Below, piece by piece: positions 5,273 through 63,403 of a stretch of 64,000 nt of DNA. Position numbers and translations under genes: made by a program. Every line of letters begins with the position of its first letter. Position 1 is the stretch's first letter. Origin of the DNA: Eledone cirrhosa (Eukaryota); NCBI GenBank assembly GCA_964016885.1, contig OZ024741.1, positions 124,248,001 to 124,312,000 of the forward strand. The letters are read 5' to 3'. The notes under the pieces are model-generated. The model searched no databases. It had not been told where the DNA came from and saw nothing but the letters and a program-made list of their open reading frames with translations.

Positions 5273-5489
5273 CCAAAATTTGCATATTAACGGCTGAGCA
5301 CCCTAATTTGCATATCGAGTGAGTTAGTCGGCCGGGCGTACCTAAAACGATAAATGGAAAAAATGAAATTTCATTTCTCACTCTGAGTATGGCTGATACT
5401 TAAATATAAGTATGTATACGTACATACTTATATGTACAGTAGTATGTATATACATACATGCATATATATATATATATATATATATAAAT

Positions 5490-6055
5490 ATATGACTCAT
5501 GCGCACCAGCATAGCAACATACAACGCACTAACACACAACCACATCCCCGCCAAACTATCCAGGATTCTACTGCAAAACATAAAAATAGTTGTAACTGCA
5601 CCAAACCAGGTACGTGCCCACTGAATAACCTGTGCCTAGCACGCAATATTGTCTACCGGTGTACAATAAATTCCGGGACCAGTAAATGGTATTACGTCGG
5701 ATGTACCGCAACTTCTTTCAAGGCTCGCCTATACCAACATCGATCTTCGATCAGGCACGAGAAAATGCGCTCCGTAACAACCCTCGCCGATAAAGCCTGG
5801 CAGCTTCGGAGGAACAATCAAGCGTTCTCCCTTGATTGGCAAATTATTGCAGCTGCGCCTGCATATCAGCAAAATCATCGATTCTGCAAGTTATGCAATT
5901 TAGAGATATACTGCATTTTAACGTCGGTAAACAAACTTTTGAACAGCAAAATTGAACGTTCTCTATACTGTAACCATCGTTTGAAAACGACTTTTTCTTT
6001 TTTAAATGCATATAATGTTACCTTTTTACACCAACGTTTGCAAATTTTTGTCTGA
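5490..6055 (+). pseudogene. Naiad-type Penelope-like GIY-YIG endonuclease, 5'-truncated
   Basis: CNCTKPGTCPLNNLCL..NIVYRC..YYVGCTATSFKARLYQHRSS..CKLCNLE..LLNSK..CNHR carries the CNC/CPL, GIY-YIG, CxLCxxE and terminal CxH motifs. The ORF-track start lies in (TA)n. Confidence 0.85.
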
Positions 6056-28037: not shown

Positions 28038-28885
28038 GGACAAAATGAAACGAAATTTCATTTCTCACTCTTAGTATGGCTGTTACTTAAATATAAGTAT
28101 GTATACGTACATACATATATGTATACAGACGTACAGTAGTATGTATATATATATATATACATACATGCACACATATATATATGTACGTATGGATTTACCG
28201 AACATTTATTATAATGCTCGGTGTGTTTGTAAACAAACATGCCGAATTAAGCCGTACAGTGTTTAGCAACCAACGTTGCCCTTTTGTTCAACACTGACAA
28301 AGGAACGATGTAGTATTTTCAAGGTTATTAGCTATCGTCAGCACCGTATACCTTCTTGCCAGATAATTGAACGTCTGAAAGTATATACTTTCCTTATGCA
28401 TATTAACGGCTGAGCAGCCTAATTTGCATATCGAGTGAGTTAATCGCCAATTTATATAATATATATATATATATACATACATACATATATATACGTACGT
28501 ATGGATTTACCGAACATTTATTATAATGATCGGTGTGTTTGTAAACAAACATCCCGAATTAATTCGTACAGTGTTTAGCAACCATCGTTGCCCTTTTGTT
28601 CAACGCTGACAAAGGAACGATGTACTAGTTTCAAGGTTATCAGCTATCGTCAGCACCGTATACCTTCTTGCCAGATAATTGAACGTCTGAAAGTATATAC
28701 TTTCCTTATGCATATTAACGGCTGAGCAGCCTAATTTGCATATCGAGTGAGTTAATCGGCCGGGCGCACCGAAAATGTTAAACGGAAAAAATGAAACGAA
28801 ATTTCATTTCTCACTCTTAGTACAGCTGTTTCTTAAATATAAGTATGTATAAGTACATACATATATGTATACAGACGTACAGTAG

Positions 28886-31421: not shown

Positions 31422-34140
31422 ATTAGTTTTGCGAGGTTTTTTATATGAAATCGTGTGTCGAAACAGATATTGTTATATTTGGGGAGGGTCATATTTGCGT
31501 AATATTGCCAGAATTAATAACAGAACACACTCACTGTTTGGTTGGTTTTCGCTTCTCGCTGTCTTTTATATATATATATCTGCGATCTAACTTACTCGGT
31601 CCTCAATGTTGCCATTGACTGACCGGCGGTCAAAAATAATACAGATACAATATAGACACAAACACATATATATAGTTTACATAATTTACATAAATCTTTC
31701 GTTGCACATCTGCAACATCGTCAGTGGTGTTATATTCATTGTTCCTCCTGTTGTGTTGTATGTCTACGCCATTTTTTTTTTGTTCAGTCTGTCTATATAT
31801 TTATTTATTTATTTGCTTGTTTGTTTATCTTATTTTATTTTGCACAACTAACACACGATGGGAGAGAAAAAATCCTCAACGCTCACATGATGATGTGGAC
31901 TGACATCCTAAAGCCAAGCAGACGCACTGCCAACAACTTCCAGGCGTCTAACAATGGCATACCACCCTTGTATGGGCTCCGCAAGGACCACAAGACAGTC
32001 GACGACCCGACAACAGGACCACCAACAAGACCCGTATGCGGAGCTAATATAGCTAGCAACTACAGGATCTCCTACTTCCTCTCAATGGTTATACGCCCCA
32101 TAATCAAGATGTCCCCAGATGTATGTGAAAGTACAGAGGACCTCCTCAGCAGAATCAGTGAGTGCAACAAAAACAGGAGCCTATCCAACTGCATAATAGG
32201 CAGCATGGATGTGGTGTCACTGTACCCATCCATTAACATTGATTTTGCTGTGAAAAGATGTGTGGAGATGATCATTGAGAGTGAGGTGGAGTTCTGCGAC
32301 GTCGACACAGACGAACTGGGCCTCCTACTTAGACTTACCTACGACACTGACTACCTAGACAGCCATGACCTTAGATGTTTCTGCCCTAGTAGACCTATAA
32401 GAGGTAGACCCCCCACCATAACCTCAATGGCTAAAAAGACTCCCATAGGAAGGTGGATTGGGTGGACCAAAGCTATACGGACCCCCCAAAACACTGATCA
32501 GGTAAGAAAAATGGTCGCACATGCAATAGGGGCTAGTATCAAAACTACCCTAAAGGGCCACATATTTAAGTTCAATGAGAAAATCTACACCCAAAATGAG
32601 GGAGCAGCCATCGGCGTCAGCATAGCTGGTGATGTTGCCAACCTTTTCATGGTATGGTGGGAAAGGAGACTTAAAGATCTCCTTAATGAAAGCTCCATAG
32701 ACCTCATCATGTACTCTCGTTATGTAGACGATATCAATATAGTTATAAGAACACCCCCACTAGAGAGCACTAACAAGTTTGATTTAGAACGTAGCACGAT
32801 GGAAAGCATCCAGCAGATAGCTAATTCCATACACCAGAGTATAACTGTAACTATAGACTTCCCTTCCAAACACCCTAACAATAGACTACCTGTATTAGAC
32901 ACAGAACTCTGGATTAACACTATAGACGAGAGAGCCCAAATTCTCCACTCACACTATGCTAAACCCATGGCCTCCAAATACCTGATACTCAAAAACTTAG
33001 CAATGTCCAGTAGTGCTAAGTTTAATATTCTGATCGCAGATTTGGTACGAGTGATGAAGAATGTGTCCAGCATGTGCGACCCAACAGAAATGGAAGGACA
33101 CATCCAACACTTCATCAACCGCATGCAGTTCTCTGGCTACAACCAAAGAGACAGAGTCAGAGTATACGAAGGAGCCATGGAAAAGTATAAGACCCTCATA
33201 GAACTGGACATGAAAGGAATTTGCCCACTATACAGGAGCAAATCATGGAATAGCTTAGATAGGGCTAGACATAAGATAGGGAAGGCCACATCATGGTACG
33301 ACAACCAGAGATATCAGAGTGTCATGTTTGTGGACGCCACCCCTGGGGGAAATTAGCTAACCAGTGTAGAAAGGCCCTGAGAAAGACCCACTTAAAAATA
33401 AAGGTGGTAGAAAAGCCAGGAACCACCATAAAATCCCCGATCAGCAAAACCTACCCTTTTAAGAAAACCCACTGTACCAATAGGAAATGTATCATTTGTA
33501 AGGTGAACCCCCGGATAAACTGTAAAACTAGAAACGTAGTCTATTGCATAAGATGTACAGAGGGTACTTGCAGAAACATGACAACAACATACATAGGTGA
33601 GACAGCTCGTAGCATAGGTGAAAGGATAGACCAACACTGGGGGGAACTAAAAGGACGAAAAAACGGGTCAGTACTATACGAACATGCTAGACAACAACAT
33701 GACGGTAACATAGACAACATAGAAATTAGAATAATATCTAAACATAGGAATGACCCAGCAGATAGGCAAATCAGAGAGGCCAGTGAAATAGAAATTAGAA
33801 GACCAAAGCTAAACAAAAAGAATGAGTGGAACAACAACAACACCCAAACAAACAACACTGACCTAAGAGAAGTATAAATAAGTAAATAAAATTAAATAAA
33901 ATAAAATAAGATAAATAAATACATACACAAGCACATAAACACACACTAGTCACCCAGCAGACACAACACTATACACACTAGTCACACATCACACTATACA
34001 CACACGCAAACGCATGCGCAAAGAAGACAAACTAAAATAAGATAAACAAACAAGCAAATAAATAAATAAATATATAGACAGACTGAACAAAAAAAAAATG
34101 ACGTAGACATACAACACAACAGGAGGAACAATGAATATAA
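31422..34140 (+). mobile_element. Penelope-like retroelement: inverted 5' pLTR, 5'-truncated RT-EN ORF, partial 3' pLTR
   Basis: 31422-31840 is the reverse complement of the pLTR (matches 34030-34140 and 49960-50322). It contains an HHR motif at 31687-31728(-) and abuts (TA)n. Confidence 0.92.
31842..33877 (+). CDS. Penelope-like reverse transcriptase plus C-terminal GIY-YIG endonuclease; one frameshift at ~33350
   Basis: LYGLRKDHK, RPV, SMDVVSLYPSI, GAAIG, YSRYVDDI, LPVLD. Second frame gives CxxxxCxxC, NVVYCIRC, YIGETARS, H, RQIREA, LN. Confidence 0.92.
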
Positions 34141-35247: not shown

Positions 35248-36346
35248 TGCTCGGTTTGTTGTTTTTTTCACTGCTTTTTCACTGTATTCTTTTCCTTCCC
35301 TTTTGTTTTCCTTCCTTCCCTCCTCCGTTTTCCCAATAACCTATCCAATTACTGACGCTCTGGGCGGTAGATATATTGTCTTTAAAGCGTAGAAATATCC
35401 GAGACCCCCTGTAGACAACTGATTAGGAAAACTCTCCCCCGTTCTTGCTTTCTTCTTACTGCCACTCCATTCTAAGCTACCTTAAATAGCAACTACACAG
35501 CCATTTCTATTCTCCATATATATATATCAGCTAGACCATTATATATATCAGCTAGACCATTACTCACCAGAGTACTCGATACTTGGGGTAGTAGAGTGGA
35601 CAATATGAACAAATTCAGAACCCCGACGGCTGAGCTCCGGGCGTTTCGACAGCCAAATCCGAACGTGTTTCCAGATCTAGCTGTCTTTATAATATATATA
35701 CATATATATGATATAGATGTAGATGTAGTGTTAGTACATGTTTAATTAGTTGATAGTTAGGCTTGTGTTTTTAATACTCCAATTAATTAATAGATTTGAA
35801 GTTAGCAAAATATTGCACTTCACGTCGTATGCATCTTTCCTGCAGTGTAGCAACAATTGGGAAATGGATGACGTAGCATGTGTAAAATAATTAGTATGAA
35901 GATAAGATTTATATTATTCCATTTATTAGGTGCTTCACGGACATACGTATTTCTGTGGTGTCAGCTTTTGTTATGCAATGAAACTACTATGTAATTATGA
36001 CAACACCTCTTCAGAGAGCCACGTTCCATGTAAATATACTGATATGGAAATGGACCAATTTTAGATGCTGTACTTTCAAGATTTAATCTCTAGATGATTT
36101 AATAATACTTAATTTCATTCTGCGTAAATGTAATATAGCACATTATACATTCGTTGTCAAATAACATATATTTTATTCGTTAACACAACACAACACAGAA
36201 GAATTAGCATGAGACGAAACGCACACATACACATTTATTTATGTACATGTTACCCAGGCACATATTCATATCTACACAAACAGATGCATTACTGTACATG
36301 GCATATTCAATTTCTTGATGCACTCGTGTATATATATATATATATA

Positions 36347-39300
36347 TTGGATTAAATGCTCTGAAATAGCGATATATATGTGAAGATAGACATAGAATAT
36401 TCGAAAATATTCTGTATGTTTATAATAAACATTTTGAAGACCTAATCGCTATAGAATAGAATACGTCACGTATTACAATTAGATTCTCGATAAAAGCAAG
36501 GGAAGTAACCTACGCGTTTCATTCTTATTAGAAATCTTCAGGATTACATATCCAGTGCTTTTATCGAGAATGACACAGCTAGAGACTTATAGAATACTTA
36601 GCTGTGTACAGGAACTGGTTTGAAAGAGCGGTTGCCGGTCCGGCAGAAATTAGAAATTGGATTAAATGCTATGAAATAGCGATATATATGTGAAGATAGA
36701 CATAGAATATTCGAAAATATTCTGTATGTTTATAATAAACATTTTGAAGACCTAATCGCTATAGAATAGAATACGTCACGTATTACAATTAGATTCTCGA
36801 TAAAAGCAAGGGAAGTAACCTACGCGTTTCATTCTTATTAGAAATCTTCAGGATTACATATCCAGTGCTTTTATCGAAAATGACACAGCTAGAGACTTAT
36901 AGAATACTTAGCTGTGTACAGGAACTGGTTTGAAAGAGCGGTTGCCGGTCCGGCAGAAATTAGAAATTGGATTAAATGCTATGAAATAGCGATATATATG
37001 TGAAGATAGACATAGAATATTCGAAAATATTCTGTATGTTTATAATAAACATTTTGAAGACCTAATCGCTATAGAATAGAATACGTCACGTATTACAATT
37101 AGATTCCCGATAAAAGCAAGGGAAGTAACCTACGCGTTTCATTCTTATTAGAAATCTTCAGGATTACATATCCAGTGCTTTTATCGAGAATGACACAGCT
37201 AGAGACTTATAGAATACTTAGCTGTGTACAGGAACTGGTTTGAAAGAGCGGTTGCCGGTCCGGCAGAAATTAGAAATTGGATTAAATGCTCGGAAATAGC
37301 GATATATATGTGAAGATAGACATAGAATATTGGAAAATATTCTGTATGTTTATAATAAACATTTTGAAGACCTAATCGCTATAGAATAGAATACGTCACG
37401 TATTACAATTAGATTCTCGATAAAAGCAAGGGAAGTAACCTACGCGTTTCATTCTTATTAGAAATCTTCAGGATTACATATCCAGTGCTTTTATCGAAAA
37501 TGACACAGCTAGAGACTTATAGAATACTTAGCTGTGTACAGGAACTGGTTTGAAAGAGCGGTTGCCGGTCCGGCAGAAATTAGAAATTGGATTAAATGCT
37601 ATGAAATAGCGATATATATGTGAAGATAGACATAGAATATTCGAAAATATTCTGTATGTTTATAATAAACATTTTGAAGACCTAATCGCTATAGAATAGA
37701 ATACGTCACGTATTACAATTAGATTCCCGATAAAAGCAAGGGAAGTAACCTACGCGTTTCATTCTTATTAGAAATCTTCAGGATTACATATCCAGTGCTT
37801 TTATCGAGAATGACACAGCTAGAGACTTATAGAATACTTAGCTGTGTACAGGAACTGGTTTGAAAGAGCGGTTGCCGGTCCGGCAGAAATTAGAAATTGG
37901 ATTAAATGCTCTGAAATAGCGATATATATGTGAAGATAGACATAGAATATTCGAAAATATTCTGTATGTTTATAATAAACATTTTGAAGACCTAATCGCT
38001 ATAGAATAGAATACGTCACGTATTACAATTAGATTCTCGATAAAAGCAAGGGAAGTAACCTACGCGTTTCATTCTTATTAGAAATCTTCAGGATTACATA
38101 TCCAGTGCTTATATATCGCTATTTCAGAGCATTTAATCCAATTTCTAATTTCTGCCGGACCGGCAACCGCTCTTTCAAACCAGTTCCTGTACACAGCTAA
38201 GTATTCTATAAGTCCCTAGCTGTGTCATTCTCGATAAAAGCACTGGATATGTAATCCTGAAGATTTCTAATAAGAATGAAACGCGTAGGTTACTTCCCTT
38301 GCTTTTATCGAGAATCTAATTGTAATACGTGACGTATTCTATTCTATAGCGATTAGGTCTTCAAAATGTTTATTATAAACATACAGAATATTTTCGAATA
38401 TTCTATGTCTATCTTCACATATATATCGCTATTTCAGAGCATTTAATCCAATTTCTAATTTCTGCCGGACCGGCAACCGCTCTTTCAAACCAGTTCCTGT
38501 ACACAGCTAAGTATTCTATAAGTCTCTAACTGTGTCATTCTCGATAAAAGCACTGGATATGTAATCCTGAAGATTTCTAATAAGAATGAAACGAGTAGGT
38601 TACTTCCCTTGCTTTTATCGAGAATCTAATTGTAATACGTGACGTATTCTATTCTATAGCGATTAGGTCTTCAAAATGTTTATTATAAACATACAGAATA
38701 TTTTCGAATATTCTATGTCTATCTTCACATATATATCGCTATTTCAGAGCATTTAATCCAATTTCTAATTTCTGCCGGACCGGCAACCGCTCTTTCAAAC
38801 CAGTTCCTGTACACAGCTAAGTATTCTATAAGTCTCTAGCTGTGTCATTCTCGATAAAAGCACTGGATATGTAATCCTGAAGATTTCTAATAAGAATCAA
38901 ACGCGTAGGTTACTTCCCTTGCTTTTATCGAGAATCTAATTGTAATACGTGACGTATTCTATTCTATAGCGATTAGGTCTTCAAAATGTTTATTATAAAC
39001 ATACAGAATATTTTCGAATATTCTATGTCTATCTTCACATATATATCGCTATTTCAGAGCATTTAATCCAATTTCTAATTTCTGCCGGACCGGCAACCGC
39101 TCTTTCAAACCAGTTCCTGTACACAGCTAAGTATTCTATAAGTCTCTAGCTGTGTCATTCTCGATAAAAGCACTGGATATGTAATCCTGAAGATTTCTAA
39201 TAAGAATGAAACGCGTAGGTTATTTCCCTTGCTTTTATCGAGAATCTAATTGTAATACGTGACGTATTCTATTCTATAGCGATTAGGTCTTCAAAATGTT

Positions 39301-39961
39301 TATTATAAACATACAGAATATTTTCGAATATTCTATGTCTATCTTCACATATATATCGCTATTTCAGAGCATTTAATCCAATTTCTAATTTCTGCCGGAC
39401 CGGCAACCGCTCTTTCAAACCAGTTCCTGTACACAGCTAAGTATTCTATAAGTCTCTAGCTGTGTCATTCTCGATAAAAGCACTGGATATGTAATCCTGA
39501 AGATTTCTAATAAGAATGAAACGCGTAGGTTACTTCCCTTGCTTTTATCGAGAATCTAATTGTAATACGTGACGTATTCTATTCTATAGCGATTAGGTCT
39601 TCAAAATATTTATTATAAACATACAGAATATTTCCAATATTCTATGTCTATCTTCACATATATATCGCTATTTCAGAGCATTTAATCCAATTTCTAATTT
39701 CTGCCGGACCGGCAACCGCTCTTTCAAACCAGTTCCTGTACACAGCTAAGTATTCTATAAGTCTCTAGCTGTGTCATTCTCGATAAAAGCACTGGATATG
39801 TAATCCTGAAGATTTCTAATAAGAATGAAACGCGTAGGTTACTTCCCTTGCTTTTATCGAGAATCTAATTGTAATACGTGACGTATTCTATTCTATAGCG
39901 ATTAGGTCTTCAAAATGTTTATTATAAACATACAGAATATTTTCGAATATTCTATGTCTAT

Positions 39962-39964
<3 letters not shown>
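36347..39964. repeat. Palindromic tandem array of 310-bp hammerhead-containing monomers (retrozyme-like)
   Basis: Period of 310 (ATTAAATGCT at 36351, 36661, 36971, 37281, 37591, 37901). Orientation flips at 38110/38111; reverse units start at 38111, 38421, 38731, 39041, 39351 and 39660. Both ends abut (TA)n. Confidence 0.97.
38227..38315 (+). ncRNA. Type I hammerhead ribozyme of the 310-bp monomer (representative of 12 copies)
   Basis: GUAAUC-CUGAAGA-U-UUCU-aaua-AGAA-U-GAAA-CGCG-UA|GGUUAC. Distal stem I is 16 perfect bp (AUUCUCGAUAAAAGCA/UGCUUUUAUCGAGAAU). Cores start at 38251, 38561, 38871, 39181, 39491, 39800 (+); minus-strand cores have left coordinates 36505, 36815, 37125, 37435, 37745, 38055. 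Confidence 0.9.
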
Positions 39965-40027
<63 letters not shown>

Positions 40028-47118: not shown

Positions 47119-47391
47119 TCTAAAAAGTTAAAATGATAAAGTATTACTACTATATAACTTACATCTATTGTTGTAACACCATTGAAATGCACAAGTTTCA
47201 CCAATTCACTATTATGCACTAATCATCTCAAAGGCCTTCATGATTTACTAGCTTTGTCATTAAGCCAGTTGCCTCAACTAGATTGCAATTATATTCAAAA
47301 GAACTTTAAAATGTCAATCACTTGTCAGTAATTCACTATGATCATTTATTTATTAGATAGTTGTTGCTTGCATTGCCTTAAAAAATAGTAG

Positions 47392-48483
47392 ACCAGATAG
47401 AAAAACGCGTACAGCAAAAAAAAGTAATATTGTTGGAATATAAACCTTTAAAAATACAGGACAAGAAACTAAAATAAAACTTTAAAAGAATAGGACAAGA
47501 AACTAAGATAAAACTTTAAAAGAATAGGACAAGAAACTAAGATAAAACTTTAAAGAATTGGACAAGAAATAAAAAAATTTACAATAATATTAGTGGCAAC
47601 ATTTTTTTATTCGTTTCCTGTGCTATGCCCCAGTATCTTCTTGATTAGTGCATAATAATTGTCATGCTCTCATTGTGCGTTGCCCCTGAGCGGTTGGTTC
47701 TGGTTGGGGTTGGTTGGCTGAGAAGTTCTGCTCCGCTAGAATGACCATTGCAAGACGAATTGGCAGATGCAGCTGCAGGTCTCCTCCAAGAATGCACTTC
47801 TGGTCCCGCAACACCAGATGAAGATGGAGAAGACGACCGGGACAGGATGTCGACTCTGACCACAGACTACGGCACCTCCCTCAACCACCGGTCCTCCCTC
47901 CCTCTGTCCCGTCATCCCTCCAGTCCTCCTGCTCCCCCTTCCTGTACCAGAAAGCTGTGGCACGCATTCATCTGGACTGCCGGACTTGAACTCAAGGACA
48001 AGATGCAAGGAGAAGATGGACGGGTTGGTCAAGATCAAGGATGAGCGGGACGACAAGACCGTCCGCTGCTGCTCAAGATCTGTGCTCATGGGCCCATGGG
48101 TCCATTCACATTATGCATGACACATGAGGCGTGTCGCCGAATGATGAAATAGGGGTATGGTTATGGCCCAATTGGTGTTCAAACCAAGATTAAATGATCC
48201 CCCGGTCTGACGACCACCTCTGAATGTGGAACCCAGAGCCTATGAATGTGGAACTCGATTTTTTACAAATAAAAATGTTGCCACTAATATTATTGTAACA
48301 TTTTTTTATTTCTTGTCCAAATCTTTAAAATTTTATCTTAGTTTCTTGTCCTATTCTTTTAAAGTTTTATCTTAGTTTCTTGTCCTATTCTTTTAAAGTT
48401 TTCTTTTAGTATCTTGTCCTTTATTTTTAAAGGTTTATATTCCAACAATATTACTTTTTTTTGCTGTACGCATTTTTCTATCT

Positions 48484-48486
<3 letters not shown>
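47392..48486. mobile_element. Element with ~220-bp terminal inverted repeats containing 34-bp subrepeats
   Basis: ACCAGATAGAAAAA...GGCAACATTTTT (47392-47612) is the reverse complement of 48268-48486. Subrepeat GGACAAGAAACTAAGATAAAACTTTAAAAGAATA. Confidence 0.85.
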
Positions 48487-48520
<34 letters not shown>

Positions 48521-48525
<5 letters not shown>

Positions 48526-50322
48526 TACTTGGGGAGGGTCATATTTGTGTAATATTGCCAGAATTAATAACAGAACACATTCACTGTTTGGTTGGTTTTC
48601 GCTTCTGTGTCTTTTATATCGGTCAGTTTAATTTATTCGGTCCTCAATGTTGCCATTGCCTGACGAACGGTCAAAAATACAGATACAATATAGACACAAA
48701 CACATATATGTAGTCTATCAAAGTTCTTTCGTTGCACATCTGCAACATCGTCAGTGTTGCTATTATGTTTCCTCCCGTTGCATTGTATGCTTACGCCATC
48801 TTTATTTAGTCTGTTTATTTTTTTTTTGTCTTCTCTGCGCATGCGTTTGCGTATAGTGTTTTGTTTGATGTGTGTTCTTGTTTGGGTGACTGTGTATTGG
48901 TTAATGTATTCTATCTTTACTAGTGTGTGTTTTTATGTGTTTGTTGTTATTGTGCTTGTGTATGTATTTATCTATTTATTTATTTATCTTTCTATCTATT
49001 TATACTTCTCATAGGTCAGTGTTGTTTGTATGGGTGTTGTTGTTATTCCATTCATCTTTTCCCGTTTAGCCTTGGCTTTCTAAGTTCTATTTCGCTGGCC
49101 TCTCTGATTTGCCTATCCTCTGGGTCATTTCTATGTTTAAATATTATTCTAACTTCTAGGTTGTCTATGTTACCGTTGTGTTGTTGTCTGGCGTGTTCGT
49201 ATAGTACTGAACCGTTTTTTCGTCCTTTTAGTTTCCCTTGGAGAGAAATTAGCTAACCAGTGTAGAAAGGTCCTGAGAAAGACCCACTTAAAGATTAAGA
49301 GGTAGAAAAGCCAGGAACCACCATAAAATCACTGATCAGCAAAACCTAGCCTTTTAAGAAAACCCACTGTACTAATAGGAAATGTATCATATGTAGAGTA
49401 AAGCCCCGGATAAACTGTAAAACTAGAAACGTAGTCTATAGCATAGGATCTACAGAGGGTACTTGCAGAAACATGACAACAACATACATAGGCGAGACAG
49501 CTCGTAGCATAGGTGAAAGGATAGACCAACACTGGGGGGAACTAAAAGGACGAAAAAACGGTTCAGTACTATACGAACACGCCAGACAACAACACAACGG
49601 TAACATAGACAACCTAGAAGTTAGAATAATATCTAAACATAGAAATGACCCAGCAGATAGGCAAATCAGAGAGGCCAGCGAAATAGAACTTAGAAGCCCA
49701 AGGCTAAACAGAAAAAATGAATGGAATAACAACAACACCCAAACAAACAACACTGACCTAAGAGAAATATAAATAGATAGATAGATAAATAAATAAATAG
49801 ATAAATACATACACAAGCACAATAACAACAAACATATATAAACACACACTAGTAAACTAAGATAGAATACATTAACCAATACACAGTCACCCAACCAAGA
49901 ACACACATCAAATAAAACACTATACGCAAACGCATGCGCAGAGAAGACAAAAAAAAACAAATAAATAAATAAATAAACAGACTAAATAATGATGGCGTAA
50001 GCATACAATGCAACGGGAGGAAACATAACAGCAACACTGACGATGTTGCAGATGTGCAACGAAGGAACTTTGATAGGCTATATATATGTGCTGGTGTCTA
50101 TATTGTATCTGTATTCTTGACCGTTGGTCAGTTAATGGCAACATTGAGGACCGAATAAATTAAATTGACTGATATAAAAGAAACAGAAGCGAAAACCAAC
50201 CAAACAGTGAGTGTGTTCTGCTATTAATTCTGGCAATATTATTACACAAATATGACCTCCCCAAGTATAACAATATTTGTTTTGACACACGATTTCATAT
50301 CAAAAACCTCGCCAAACTAATT
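48521..50322. mobile_element. Head-to-head palindromic Penelope insertion (two EN-pLTR 3' fragments)
   Basis: Left arm 48521-49236 (-) and right arm ~49240-50322 (+), both highly similar to 33345-34140. HHR motifs at 48717-48758(-) and 50033-50074(+, GAAA>GAAG). Confidence 0.9.
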
Positions 50323-61839: not shown

Positions 61840-63403
61840 TTACTGTTTTTTCCTGACCTTTTGCGAGGCTTGGAATGTAGACAAAGCTTTATGAAGGCAG
61901 TTTGAAAATAATTCACTTTTTTTATTAATTAAGTGTTCATGATTATTAATTATTAATAGGGTCTCCTTTGTACAGAGGCTGCAGTTAATTGATATTGTAG
62001 AGTTTATATAAACTCCACTATTACAAAGCTTCCTCCTAAAGATCGAGTATTTAAAATTGTTGTCCTTTAATGACCATGTAAGCTGTGACAAAGACGTCGA
62101 AGACTTCCTATTAGAATTCGAAAATGAGCATTTGTGATTCGCAAATCTTGCTTTAAATGTTGAAGAAGTTGCTCCTATGTAGTTGTATGTGTTGTTATTT
62201 GTTTTTACGGTGCATTTATACACCAAATTTCTATCCAAACAAATATTTTGCAGAGGGCAATCTGGTTTATTTCTGCAATTACATTTTGATTTATTATTAT
62301 TTATATTAACACTATTATTAATATCGTTATGTTGATTTTGATTTAGAATTTTACTGTTTATTTTAGCGATGTTTTGGGCTATATTCATAGTTGTAGAATA
62401 AGATAATTTAATAGTGTGTCTATTAAAAATGGAATGGTATTTATATTGACTAGGGAATGAACTATCCAAAGCTTTAAAAAATAGATAGGTTATTGGTGTT
62501 CTTACTGCTACAGAAGTAGGGGTGGGGGCAAACCATATAACTGATTTAGTTCTGGTTCTTTACCCCGATTTATTCATAGTACAGACGTTTGAATTATGAT
62601 TACTAGAATTTACAGAATTTCGTTTCTATATGCCATTACTTTTATCGGGATTAAAACTTGGATTATTATTGTCTATATATTCTATATTATTTTTATAACC
62701 TGCCTTTTTCAGCGCATCATTGTAATATCCTGCATTTTCATCAAATATTAATTTATTGGCAGAAATTCTATTAATGCGTTTTTGCACGCTATTTACAATT
62801 GCTTTTTTCACTGACTTAGGGTGGTTGGAGTAATAACTAACGTAATTTAAGTTTTCGTCGGGCTTGTGGAAAGGGTAATAAAAACCAGAGTTTAAGTTAA
62901 AGGTAACATCAAGGAAATTAACTATTTTGGTACCACATTCTACCTCTAGTTTAAGGTCGTAAATTTTAAAGAATTCAATTATATTTTTCTTTACTCTATT
63001 TAGTTCTATATTGTTGTGTTTAACTACCGTAAATAAAATATCGTCCCTTCATTGTCGAAGTTAATAAGAGTTCTTCTAGCAGTTAATATGATAGCAATTT
63101 CATCCGTAGTTAGATCAGTATGTTTGTAAGCGTATGATAAAGCCTTATTTAGTAGCTTGGGTGTTATGGAAGAGTAATAGCTTGTTATGTCCATCTAGAT
63201 GAATTTGCGGTTTTTCTTATCAGCTATATTCTTATACCATTCAATGACTTCGTTTGTATCCTTCCACAAGCTCAATTTAGACCTCAATTTCACAGTAGGC
63301 AGAATTCTATCAATAATATTTTTACTGATTACTCCAATATCCGATTTGGATGGAACAATCAGTCTAACTGGCAGGTCTTCCTGTGGATCATTCATGCGTT
63401 TGC

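Follow-up and report, generated by a model that had tools for sequence, protein, structure and literature searches.

Does a head-to-head array of hammerhead ribozyme units mark a locus with a function of its own, or does it record the way in which the sequence was inserted? The question arises from a stretch of 64,000 nucleotides (nt) of Eledone cirrhosa contig OZ024741.1 (hereafter the window, with positions counted from its first letter), in which Tandem Repeats Finder (TRF) places a pair of 310-nt arrays at 36346-38114 (5.7 copies) and 38110-39975 (6.0 copies), with 98% matches, the left array on the minus strand and the right array on the plus strand. With a probability that we put at roughly 0.7, the pair belongs to a young, non-coding family of retrozymes without long terminal repeats (non-LTR retrozymes), and the enzyme of a Penelope-like element (PLE) would have copied one monomer RNA, probably a circle, from both DNA ends of a (TA)n target. 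The palindrome is then best read as a by-product of integration that is generic to the family and not a design, because most insertions of the family, as well as an autonomous PLE, have this layout. An earlier, sequence-only reading of this DNA had taken the mirror arrangement for a functional peculiarity of the locus that could supply self-cleaving monomers from either direction and long double-stranded RNA; with the same layout present in most of the family and in the PLE, that proposal is not supported.

A dispersed family whose arms end at two fixed sites

The 310-nt unit is numbered here from the first base past its predicted GUA cleavage site (phase 1), and on this scale the outer 3′ ends of the arms map to one of two places, ~26-36 nt apart: phase ~128-139, called site A, and phase 160-172 (mostly 165), called site B. 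Exact end motifs, counted across the genome, number 1,485 for site A and 1,138 (1,034 + 104) for site B at phase 165, which puts the number of insertions of the family at about 1,500, and exact core motifs amount to at least 11,350 (2,549 in the subfamily of the window and 8,801 in the major subfamily). The genome search, in which the best 40 of 405 candidates were scored, gave at least 290 matches, with an identity of 99-100% among the matches listed. We examined 110 loci, namely 36 best hits (the window included), 13 consecutive loci on C1, 21 loci picked by their B end and 40 picked as A/B pairs; the last 40 are no test of pairing, and one of the 21 was chosen for looking B/B. The flanks of these loci are unrelated, as in a dispersed, multi-locus family, and simple minus/plus palindromes account for 90 of the 110 loci, simple plus/minus pairs for none.

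Within a locus, the two sites are used together. Among the 49 loci that were not selected by their ends, 34 pair an A-ended arm with a B-ended one, and a single locus is B/B (binomial p = 1e-9 against independent choice); three loci have one end elsewhere, in non-TA flanks, and the others are single-armed. Likewise, 16 of 20 loci chosen by the B end alone have an A-ended partner arm, the second arm being undetected in the other four. TA repeats stand directly beyond 188 of 202 outer A/B ends, and the terminal unit at site A often carries C>T changes toward the TA target (131C>T in 18 loci), which is expected if target DNA annealed there as a primer. One locus, L042, is inserted in (TAA)n, yet it uses the same A and B sites; the sites are therefore set by the RNA and not solely by pairing with TA. 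The two fixed 3′ ends, the head-to-head 5′-truncated arms and the (TA)n target bear out the PLE-type insertion that the sequence-only reading had suggested.

The inner 5′ ends behave differently from the outer ones. They are scattered across the unit and do not favor the cleavage site (4 of 180 ends fall within 5 nt of it, where 5.8 would be expected). Of 180 arms, 164 pass over one or more cleavage sites, and one arm over as many as 27; the template was therefore a circle or an uncleaved multimer. Arms of this kind are also accounted for if two-site PLE priming took place on a linear multimer that a homogeneous parent array had given off and that had stayed uncleaved, with circles, if any, as a side product, and a PLE assayed in vitro did use unprocessed RNA, its insertion being unaffected by hammerhead mutations (PMC11167929).

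Where the arms meet, microhomology of at least 2 nt (span 2-9 nt) is present at 61% of 57 insert-free junctions, against 19% under the null (p = 1e-12); 29 junctions scored as having inserts, several of which are probably nearby substitutions rather than true inserts, were left out of this test. Head-to-head arms with junction microhomology and common alleles would likewise result if one cDNA or antisense RNA looped back and copied itself, as PMC3846280 proposes for inverted PLE junctions, and some junction inserts are inverted copies of nearby sequence (L044, L118, M3738). Such self-priming, however, predicts a second arm that is never longer than the first and that ends at the same site, yet the A arm is the longer one in 35 of 86 loci and the end sites differ; we regard fold-back priming as very improbable.

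A comparison of the flanks of 90 loci gave no general target-site duplication (TSD), any TSD being masked by (TA)n. At four of 90 loci (L064, L124, L133, L184), pieces of flank 32-49 nt long, TA run included, are mirrored on the two sides. A correlation between the lengths of the two arms, with a pooled rho of 0.52, was nearly gone within the sampling sets (0.08, 0.33 and 0.04) and was not used.

Some relatives of the dispersed insertions are organized in other ways. A same-strand higher-order array of the unit, at least 35 kb long and broken by TA-rich spacers, lies at G000:C14:25240000-25275400; this complex array was kept out of all counts and was rejected as a master locus (L031, L032, L071, L072), being a decayed higher-order array with TA spacers. 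Units of 311 nt with a 1-nt insertion right after the cleavage site form sublineages at L147, L150, L163 and L169 and at L167 and L175, one form having 1,393 exact matches. Sequencing runs X4 and X12, filed under organism codes other than that of this genome, each contain a single 340-nt contig with the six substitutions that define the major subfamily, at a depth of 10-26, and run X12 also shows traces of a flanking repeat. The family unit in these two runs may be trace DNA rather than a sign of horizontal transfer, a shared organism being another possibility.

Haplotypes that point to one template per insertion

Haplotypes of the unit differ between loci and are uniform across the units within a locus. 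At site 295, both arms carry G in 18 loci and both carry A in 19, with no mixed locus; variants fixed within an arm are concordant between arms in 49 of 49 testable loci, with a lone discordant site in L180; and in 21 loci a rare allele is common to all covering units of both arms, up to 25 units in L178. This pattern of one monomer template per locus is consistent with the circular RNA template that the sequence-only reading had put forward, and private alleles fixed in 18-25 units favor a circle over a multimer. On a linear multimer, alleles that were seen in a single sampled locus and yet run through both arms in all of their 18-25 units (L178, L184) would need a one-monomer bottleneck followed by amplification, and editing would be patchy from unit to unit; the conservation of catalytic residues and stems between the 310-nt family and a 316-nt sister family (below) also counts against it. 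Taken together, these points lead us to hold the linear multimer to be an unlikely template, though the least unlikely of the alternatives considered here.

Rare changes that are fixed across a locus include sense-strand A>G in 7 of 17 cases, against 19 of 255 among non-fixed changes (Fisher p = 3e-4), with only one T>C. All seven A>G sites are predicted to be paired, and four of them recur on different haplotypes. We infer that this excess fits adenosine-to-inosine (A-to-I) editing of the sense RNA before it was copied; its presence on the hammerhead-sense strand and not on the antisense strand (seven sites vs one) speaks against fold-back priming. Locus-wide indels come to just two 1-nt insertions, 2-3 nt past the cleavage site, which are weakly consistent with ligation scars.

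Alternatively, insertions could have started as short two-armed copies that were later expanded by DNA slippage or unequal exchange and homogenized by gene conversion from arm to arm. Local amplification is favored in bioRxiv 10.64898/2026.07.22.740005, the C14 locus is a large higher-order array, and non-fixed variants common to both arms occur at L046, L056, L058 and L069 and in the window (109G>C). Arm length, however, does not grow with age. The major subfamily, which is the least diverged (0.08% within loci), has the longest arms, of up to 27 units, whereas arms of the older groups, sampled by their ends, mostly have fewer than two units; this speaks against later expansion as the main source of length, and as a full account of the arms we consider it improbable, more so than the linear multimer. 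Copying of one monomer RNA per insertion thus remains our preferred reading for the family, and we now return with it to the locus in the window.

The locus in the window

The features of the locus are given below by window coordinates and strand.

36329..36346, no strand: left (TA)n target tract; the A at 36346 is common to the tract and to unit phase 165 (from the sequence and the end analysis).
36347..38110, minus strand: left arm with 5.7 units, which begins (5′) at phase 261 next to the junction and stops (3′) on the outside at site B (phase 164/165, ...UUUAAUCCAAU).
36511..38091, minus strand: six left-arm cores, at 38091, 37781, 37471, 37161, 36851 and 36541, with catalytic nucleotides intact in all six; the innermost, at 38091, has a distal stem whose 5′ strand is mostly gone.
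38110..38110, no strand: head-to-head junction, with 1-nt microhomology (a single T common to both arms).
38110..39964, plus strand: right arm with 6.0 units, which begins at phase 133/134 next to the junction and stops (3′) on the outside at site A, where unit-specific sequence runs to phase 128 and the TA tract replaces CACATATATAT to phase 139.
38227..38315, plus strand: first type I hammerhead of the right arm, with core CUGAAGA at 38257 and predicted cleavage after 38287; stem I of 16 bp (distal) and 6 bp (proximal), U-U as first pair of stem II, palindromic stem III ACGCGU.
38416..38452, plus strand: an example of the “tail” that lies between site A (phase ~129-139) and site B (phase 165), the two putative priming sites, from family-wide end mapping.
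38567..39836, plus strand: five other right-arm cores, at 38567 (stem III palindrome broken, ACGAGU), 38877 (GAAA>CAAA, G12>C, predicted inactive), 39187 (stem I G-C to G-U), 39497 and 39806.
39965..40023, no strand: right (TA)n target tract.

The sequence-only reading had described this locus as a palindrome of twelve monomers, each with a complete ribozyme. Tandem type I hammerhead units in two opposed arms are confirmed by the TRF arrays and by 12 cores (CUGAAGA...GAAACGCGUA), six in each arm; the arms hold 11.7 units and not 12 whole ones, and the head-to-head arms form an imperfect mirror, since they begin and stop at differing unit phases and the fold-back identity at the junction is 30%. 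The catalytic bases are complete in 11 of the 12 cores, in line with the two or more consecutive intact ribozymes expected of a non-LTR retrozyme; completeness fails at 38877, which has lost G12, at 38567, where stem III is broken, and at 38091, where the distal stem is truncated. Other details stood: the 6-bp proximal and 16-bp distal parts of stem I are found in the predicted fold, the three extra hairpins appear in the predicted fold of the monomer, (TA)n adjoins both 3′ ends, and no open reading frame (ORF) of at least 120 amino acids overlaps the array, so that the ORF of an autonomous PLE, with reverse transcriptase (RT) and GIY-YIG, is missing from it. The ribozyme fragment at 38217-38320 has a predicted folding energy of -33.4 kcal/mol (z -5.6; none of 200 shuffles folded as well), and the complete 310-nt monomer, which has a GC content of ~33%, has a folding z of -3.7. 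Every sequence criterion that could be run agrees with the assignment of the unit to the non-LTR retrozymes. The locus is an older copy of its subfamily: 16 substitutions have been counted over its 3,600 nt, whereas the subfamily median is 0.17%.

Long palindromes are said to be a familiar artefact of long reads, and among the contigs of sequencing run X1 none spanned the junction of the window itself, so that a sequencing or assembly fold-back chimera has to be considered. The two arms differ, however, in start phase, end phase and substitutions, and their flanks are unrelated; moreover, the same rule holds at ~90 loci, and the X1 contigs contain 10 other minus/plus junctions of the family. 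The probability that the array is such a chimera is close to nil.

Elsewhere in the window, a sequence resembling a miniature inverted-repeat transposable element lies at 47389-48489, with 190-nt terminal inverted repeats (96%), internal 34-nt subrepeats, a 721-nt core and an adjoining TA tract.

Penelope-like elements and sister hammerhead families

A young PLE (L205-L220) has a 784-amino-acid stop-to-stop frame with RT, a CxxxxCxxC linker and GIY-YIG, and is present in many near-identical copies; its motifs suggest the Neptune type. Tandem and inverted copies occur. In the two-armed copies the ends lie at two (TA)n sites ~35-40 nt apart, one per arm, in nine of nine cases by exact anchor; 16 stretches were examined, and the others were single-armed, tandem or unmatched by the anchor. 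For the end rule this PLE serves as a positive control; as a partner of the retrozyme family it is a candidate helper, not a proven one.

The window itself contains a broken PLE-like copy at 31656-33877, in which a frameshifted RT (weak RVT_1 match, E 7e-5) is followed by a frame with a GIY-YIG-like motif recognized by eye, a second PLE-like 3′ fragment at 49350-49772, and additional PLE-like fragments at 5387-6055 and 61840-63048. Elsewhere in the window, the ORFs of the PLE-like copy at 31656-33877 included, no homology to the 310-nt unit turned up.

A sister retrozyme with a 316-nt unit (L093-L112) is older, with ~5% divergence, and is homologous along the whole 310-nt unit. Its hammerhead has the same layout but different, compensated stem sequences, with AGAUCU as the loop of stem III, and its A and B ends are homologous to those of the 310-nt family. 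At L068:8800-9901 and in L070, an arm of this sister family that ends at site B stands head-to-head with a 5′-truncated Neptune-type PLE, with ~3 nt of microhomology by eye. Another hammerhead family is represented in the window by two somewhat decayed 312-nt tandem copies at 28147-28758 on the minus strand, with CUGACGA cores at 28341 and 28653; intact relatives of this family occur at L032, L052, L206, L209 and L217.

Proposed mechanism and points against it

The architecture, the rule of one A end and one B end, the haplotype common to the two arms of a locus and an intact Neptune-type PLE that follows this end rule are direct observations, and, judged by its sequence, the element behaves as a PLE passenger within the known class of non-LTR retrozymes. 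The following course of events would produce such insertions. (1) As in known retrozymes, transcripts of an array would self-cleave at GUA as dimers through the ACGCGU palindrome, and a host ligase would close the 310-nt monomer. (2) Some circles would undergo A-to-I editing in their stems. (3) The RT/GIY-YIG complex of a PLE would cut both strands of (TA)n, and one 3′ end would prime at site A, with long UA microhomology, the other at site B, 26-36 nt off. (4) Two RTs would circle one template as many as tens of times, each time passing over the cleavage site that ligation had sealed. (5) The cDNA ends would be joined at arbitrary phases via short microhomology or small templated inserts, a step that the junction sequences partly document, giving the divergent palindrome. 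(6) Later point mutation and local unit duplication, seen at some loci, the window included, would complete the picture.

It is tempting to speculate further, and we give somewhat better than even odds to a twin-primed rolling-circle retrotransposition in which a single circle, made by the ribozyme, is bound by a PLE dimer at two fixed sites, both (TA)n ends prime RTs that chase each other, and edits and ligation scars enter every unit and found lineages. If this is true, a viroid-like RNA population would be evolving via circle bottlenecks, of which the genome holds ~1,500 snapshots; RNA editing could become fixed in germline DNA via the circle; and the PLE “tail” and head-to-head copies would be two sense-strand cDNAs, not products of antisense self-priming.

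Several points weigh against the copying of a single, probably circular, monomer by a PLE enzyme. Self-cleavage and circles are predictions from DNA, and the Rfam check proposed in the sequence-only reading returned two weak HH9 matches (17.1 bits, E 0.27), far under the cut-off of 52, with none at the gathering score. In a vertebrate survey, eight of nine predicted Xenopus dimers failed to cleave (bioRxiv 10.64898/2026.07.22.740005). In a comparison with one PLE family, the Neptune-type one, the 310-nt unit had no homology to the element or to its pseudo-long terminal repeats (pLTRs), and a motif scan of this PLE revealed no canonical hammerhead. The chimera at L068 and L070 is possibly a two-RNA insertion, a single case, in which the arms need not share one RNA. 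The A>G test covers 17 sites only, and “rare” (≤6 loci) was defined post hoc from the table. Homogeneous parent arrays, as the linear multimer requires, exist in the major subfamily, with its within-locus divergence of 0.08%, and count in favor of that template. Periodic private variants are found within arms at L049, L053, L061 and L069 and in the left arm of the window, and favor later expansion. In that left arm, units 2 and 4 have three substitutions in common, so that DNA-level duplication or conversion, or a mixed template, is needed at the window locus; the locus has zero locus-fixed private alleles, and the case for a circle there therefore leans on the data from the family.

Comparison with known systems

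Animal non-LTR retrozymes are defined in PMC7229834 from coral, mussel and axolotl, with linear and circular RNA demonstrated, and the same paper proposes circle-templated tandem cDNA and PLE helpers. In the literature consulted, circles as templates and PLEs as helpers of retrozyme mobility are proposed and not demonstrated. The vertebrate survey (bioRxiv 10.64898/2026.07.22.740005) ties retrozymes to pLTRs, and hammerhead dimers formed via a palindromic helix III are described in PMC4209133. Like the metazoan non-LTR retrozymes as portrayed in these sources, the octopod family consists of non-coding tandem units (170-400 nt in that class) of low GC, with one type I hammerhead each and a short palindromic helix III; it has thousands of copies with PLEs alongside, and the U-U at the base of helix II is as in axolotl HHR_Amex2. 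Unlike the published retrozymes, it has head-to-head arms, 3′ ends at two fixed positions, haplotypes that are uniform within a locus, and an excess of A>G, none of which is mentioned in the available portions of that literature; in the main text of PMC7229834 the words “inverted” and “opposite” have 0 occurrences. At the insertions of the 310-nt family, (TA)n masks any TSD, which in retrozymes is >4 bp long when present.

PLEs typically have an inverted 5′-truncated copy together with a 30-40-bp tail on one end, with a bias toward (TA)n (PMC8557442, PMC3846280), and in PMC11167929 the tail corresponds to two adjacent RT start sites of a PLE, both strands being cut and extended and a dimer predicted. 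With these endonuclease-bearing (EN+) PLEs, such as Neptune and Naiad, the 310-nt family shares the inverted 5′-truncated copy at the 5′ end, the one-sided 30-40-bp tail, (TA)n targeting, microhomology junctions and two RT starts. It differs from them in having no ORF, in that both arms are multimers, in the lack of homology to the pLTR examined, and in a hammerhead that is canonical and not minimal.

In L1 twin priming, a model associated with Ostertag and Kazazian, both ends of the target are said to prime cDNA on one RNA, with a head-to-head join at microhomology; each cDNA reportedly copies its own part of a linear RNA, without overlap, and the position of the second site varies. In the 310-nt family, by contrast, both sites are fixed, the arms overlap on the template, and the inner ends are unrelated to the start of the opposite arm. 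Newt satellite 2, SMalpha of Schistosoma and cricket pDo500 are tandem hammerhead repeats with a weak helix III that were described as satellites; unlike them, the 310-nt family is dispersed over ~1,500 small insertions.

A literature search, which took in few subscription journals and to which supplements could add, returned nothing on two-armed, two-site retrozyme insertions. For the movement of retrozymes, and for the inverted copies and tail of PLEs, the family offers footprints at the nucleotide level, with two starts, one per arm, a single template and the sense strand copied, and for direct testing in vitro it supplies the 310-nt RNA, the (TA)n target and, as a candidate enzyme source, an intact PLE. 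The class itself is already known; the new part is the coupled two-site, one-template footprint.

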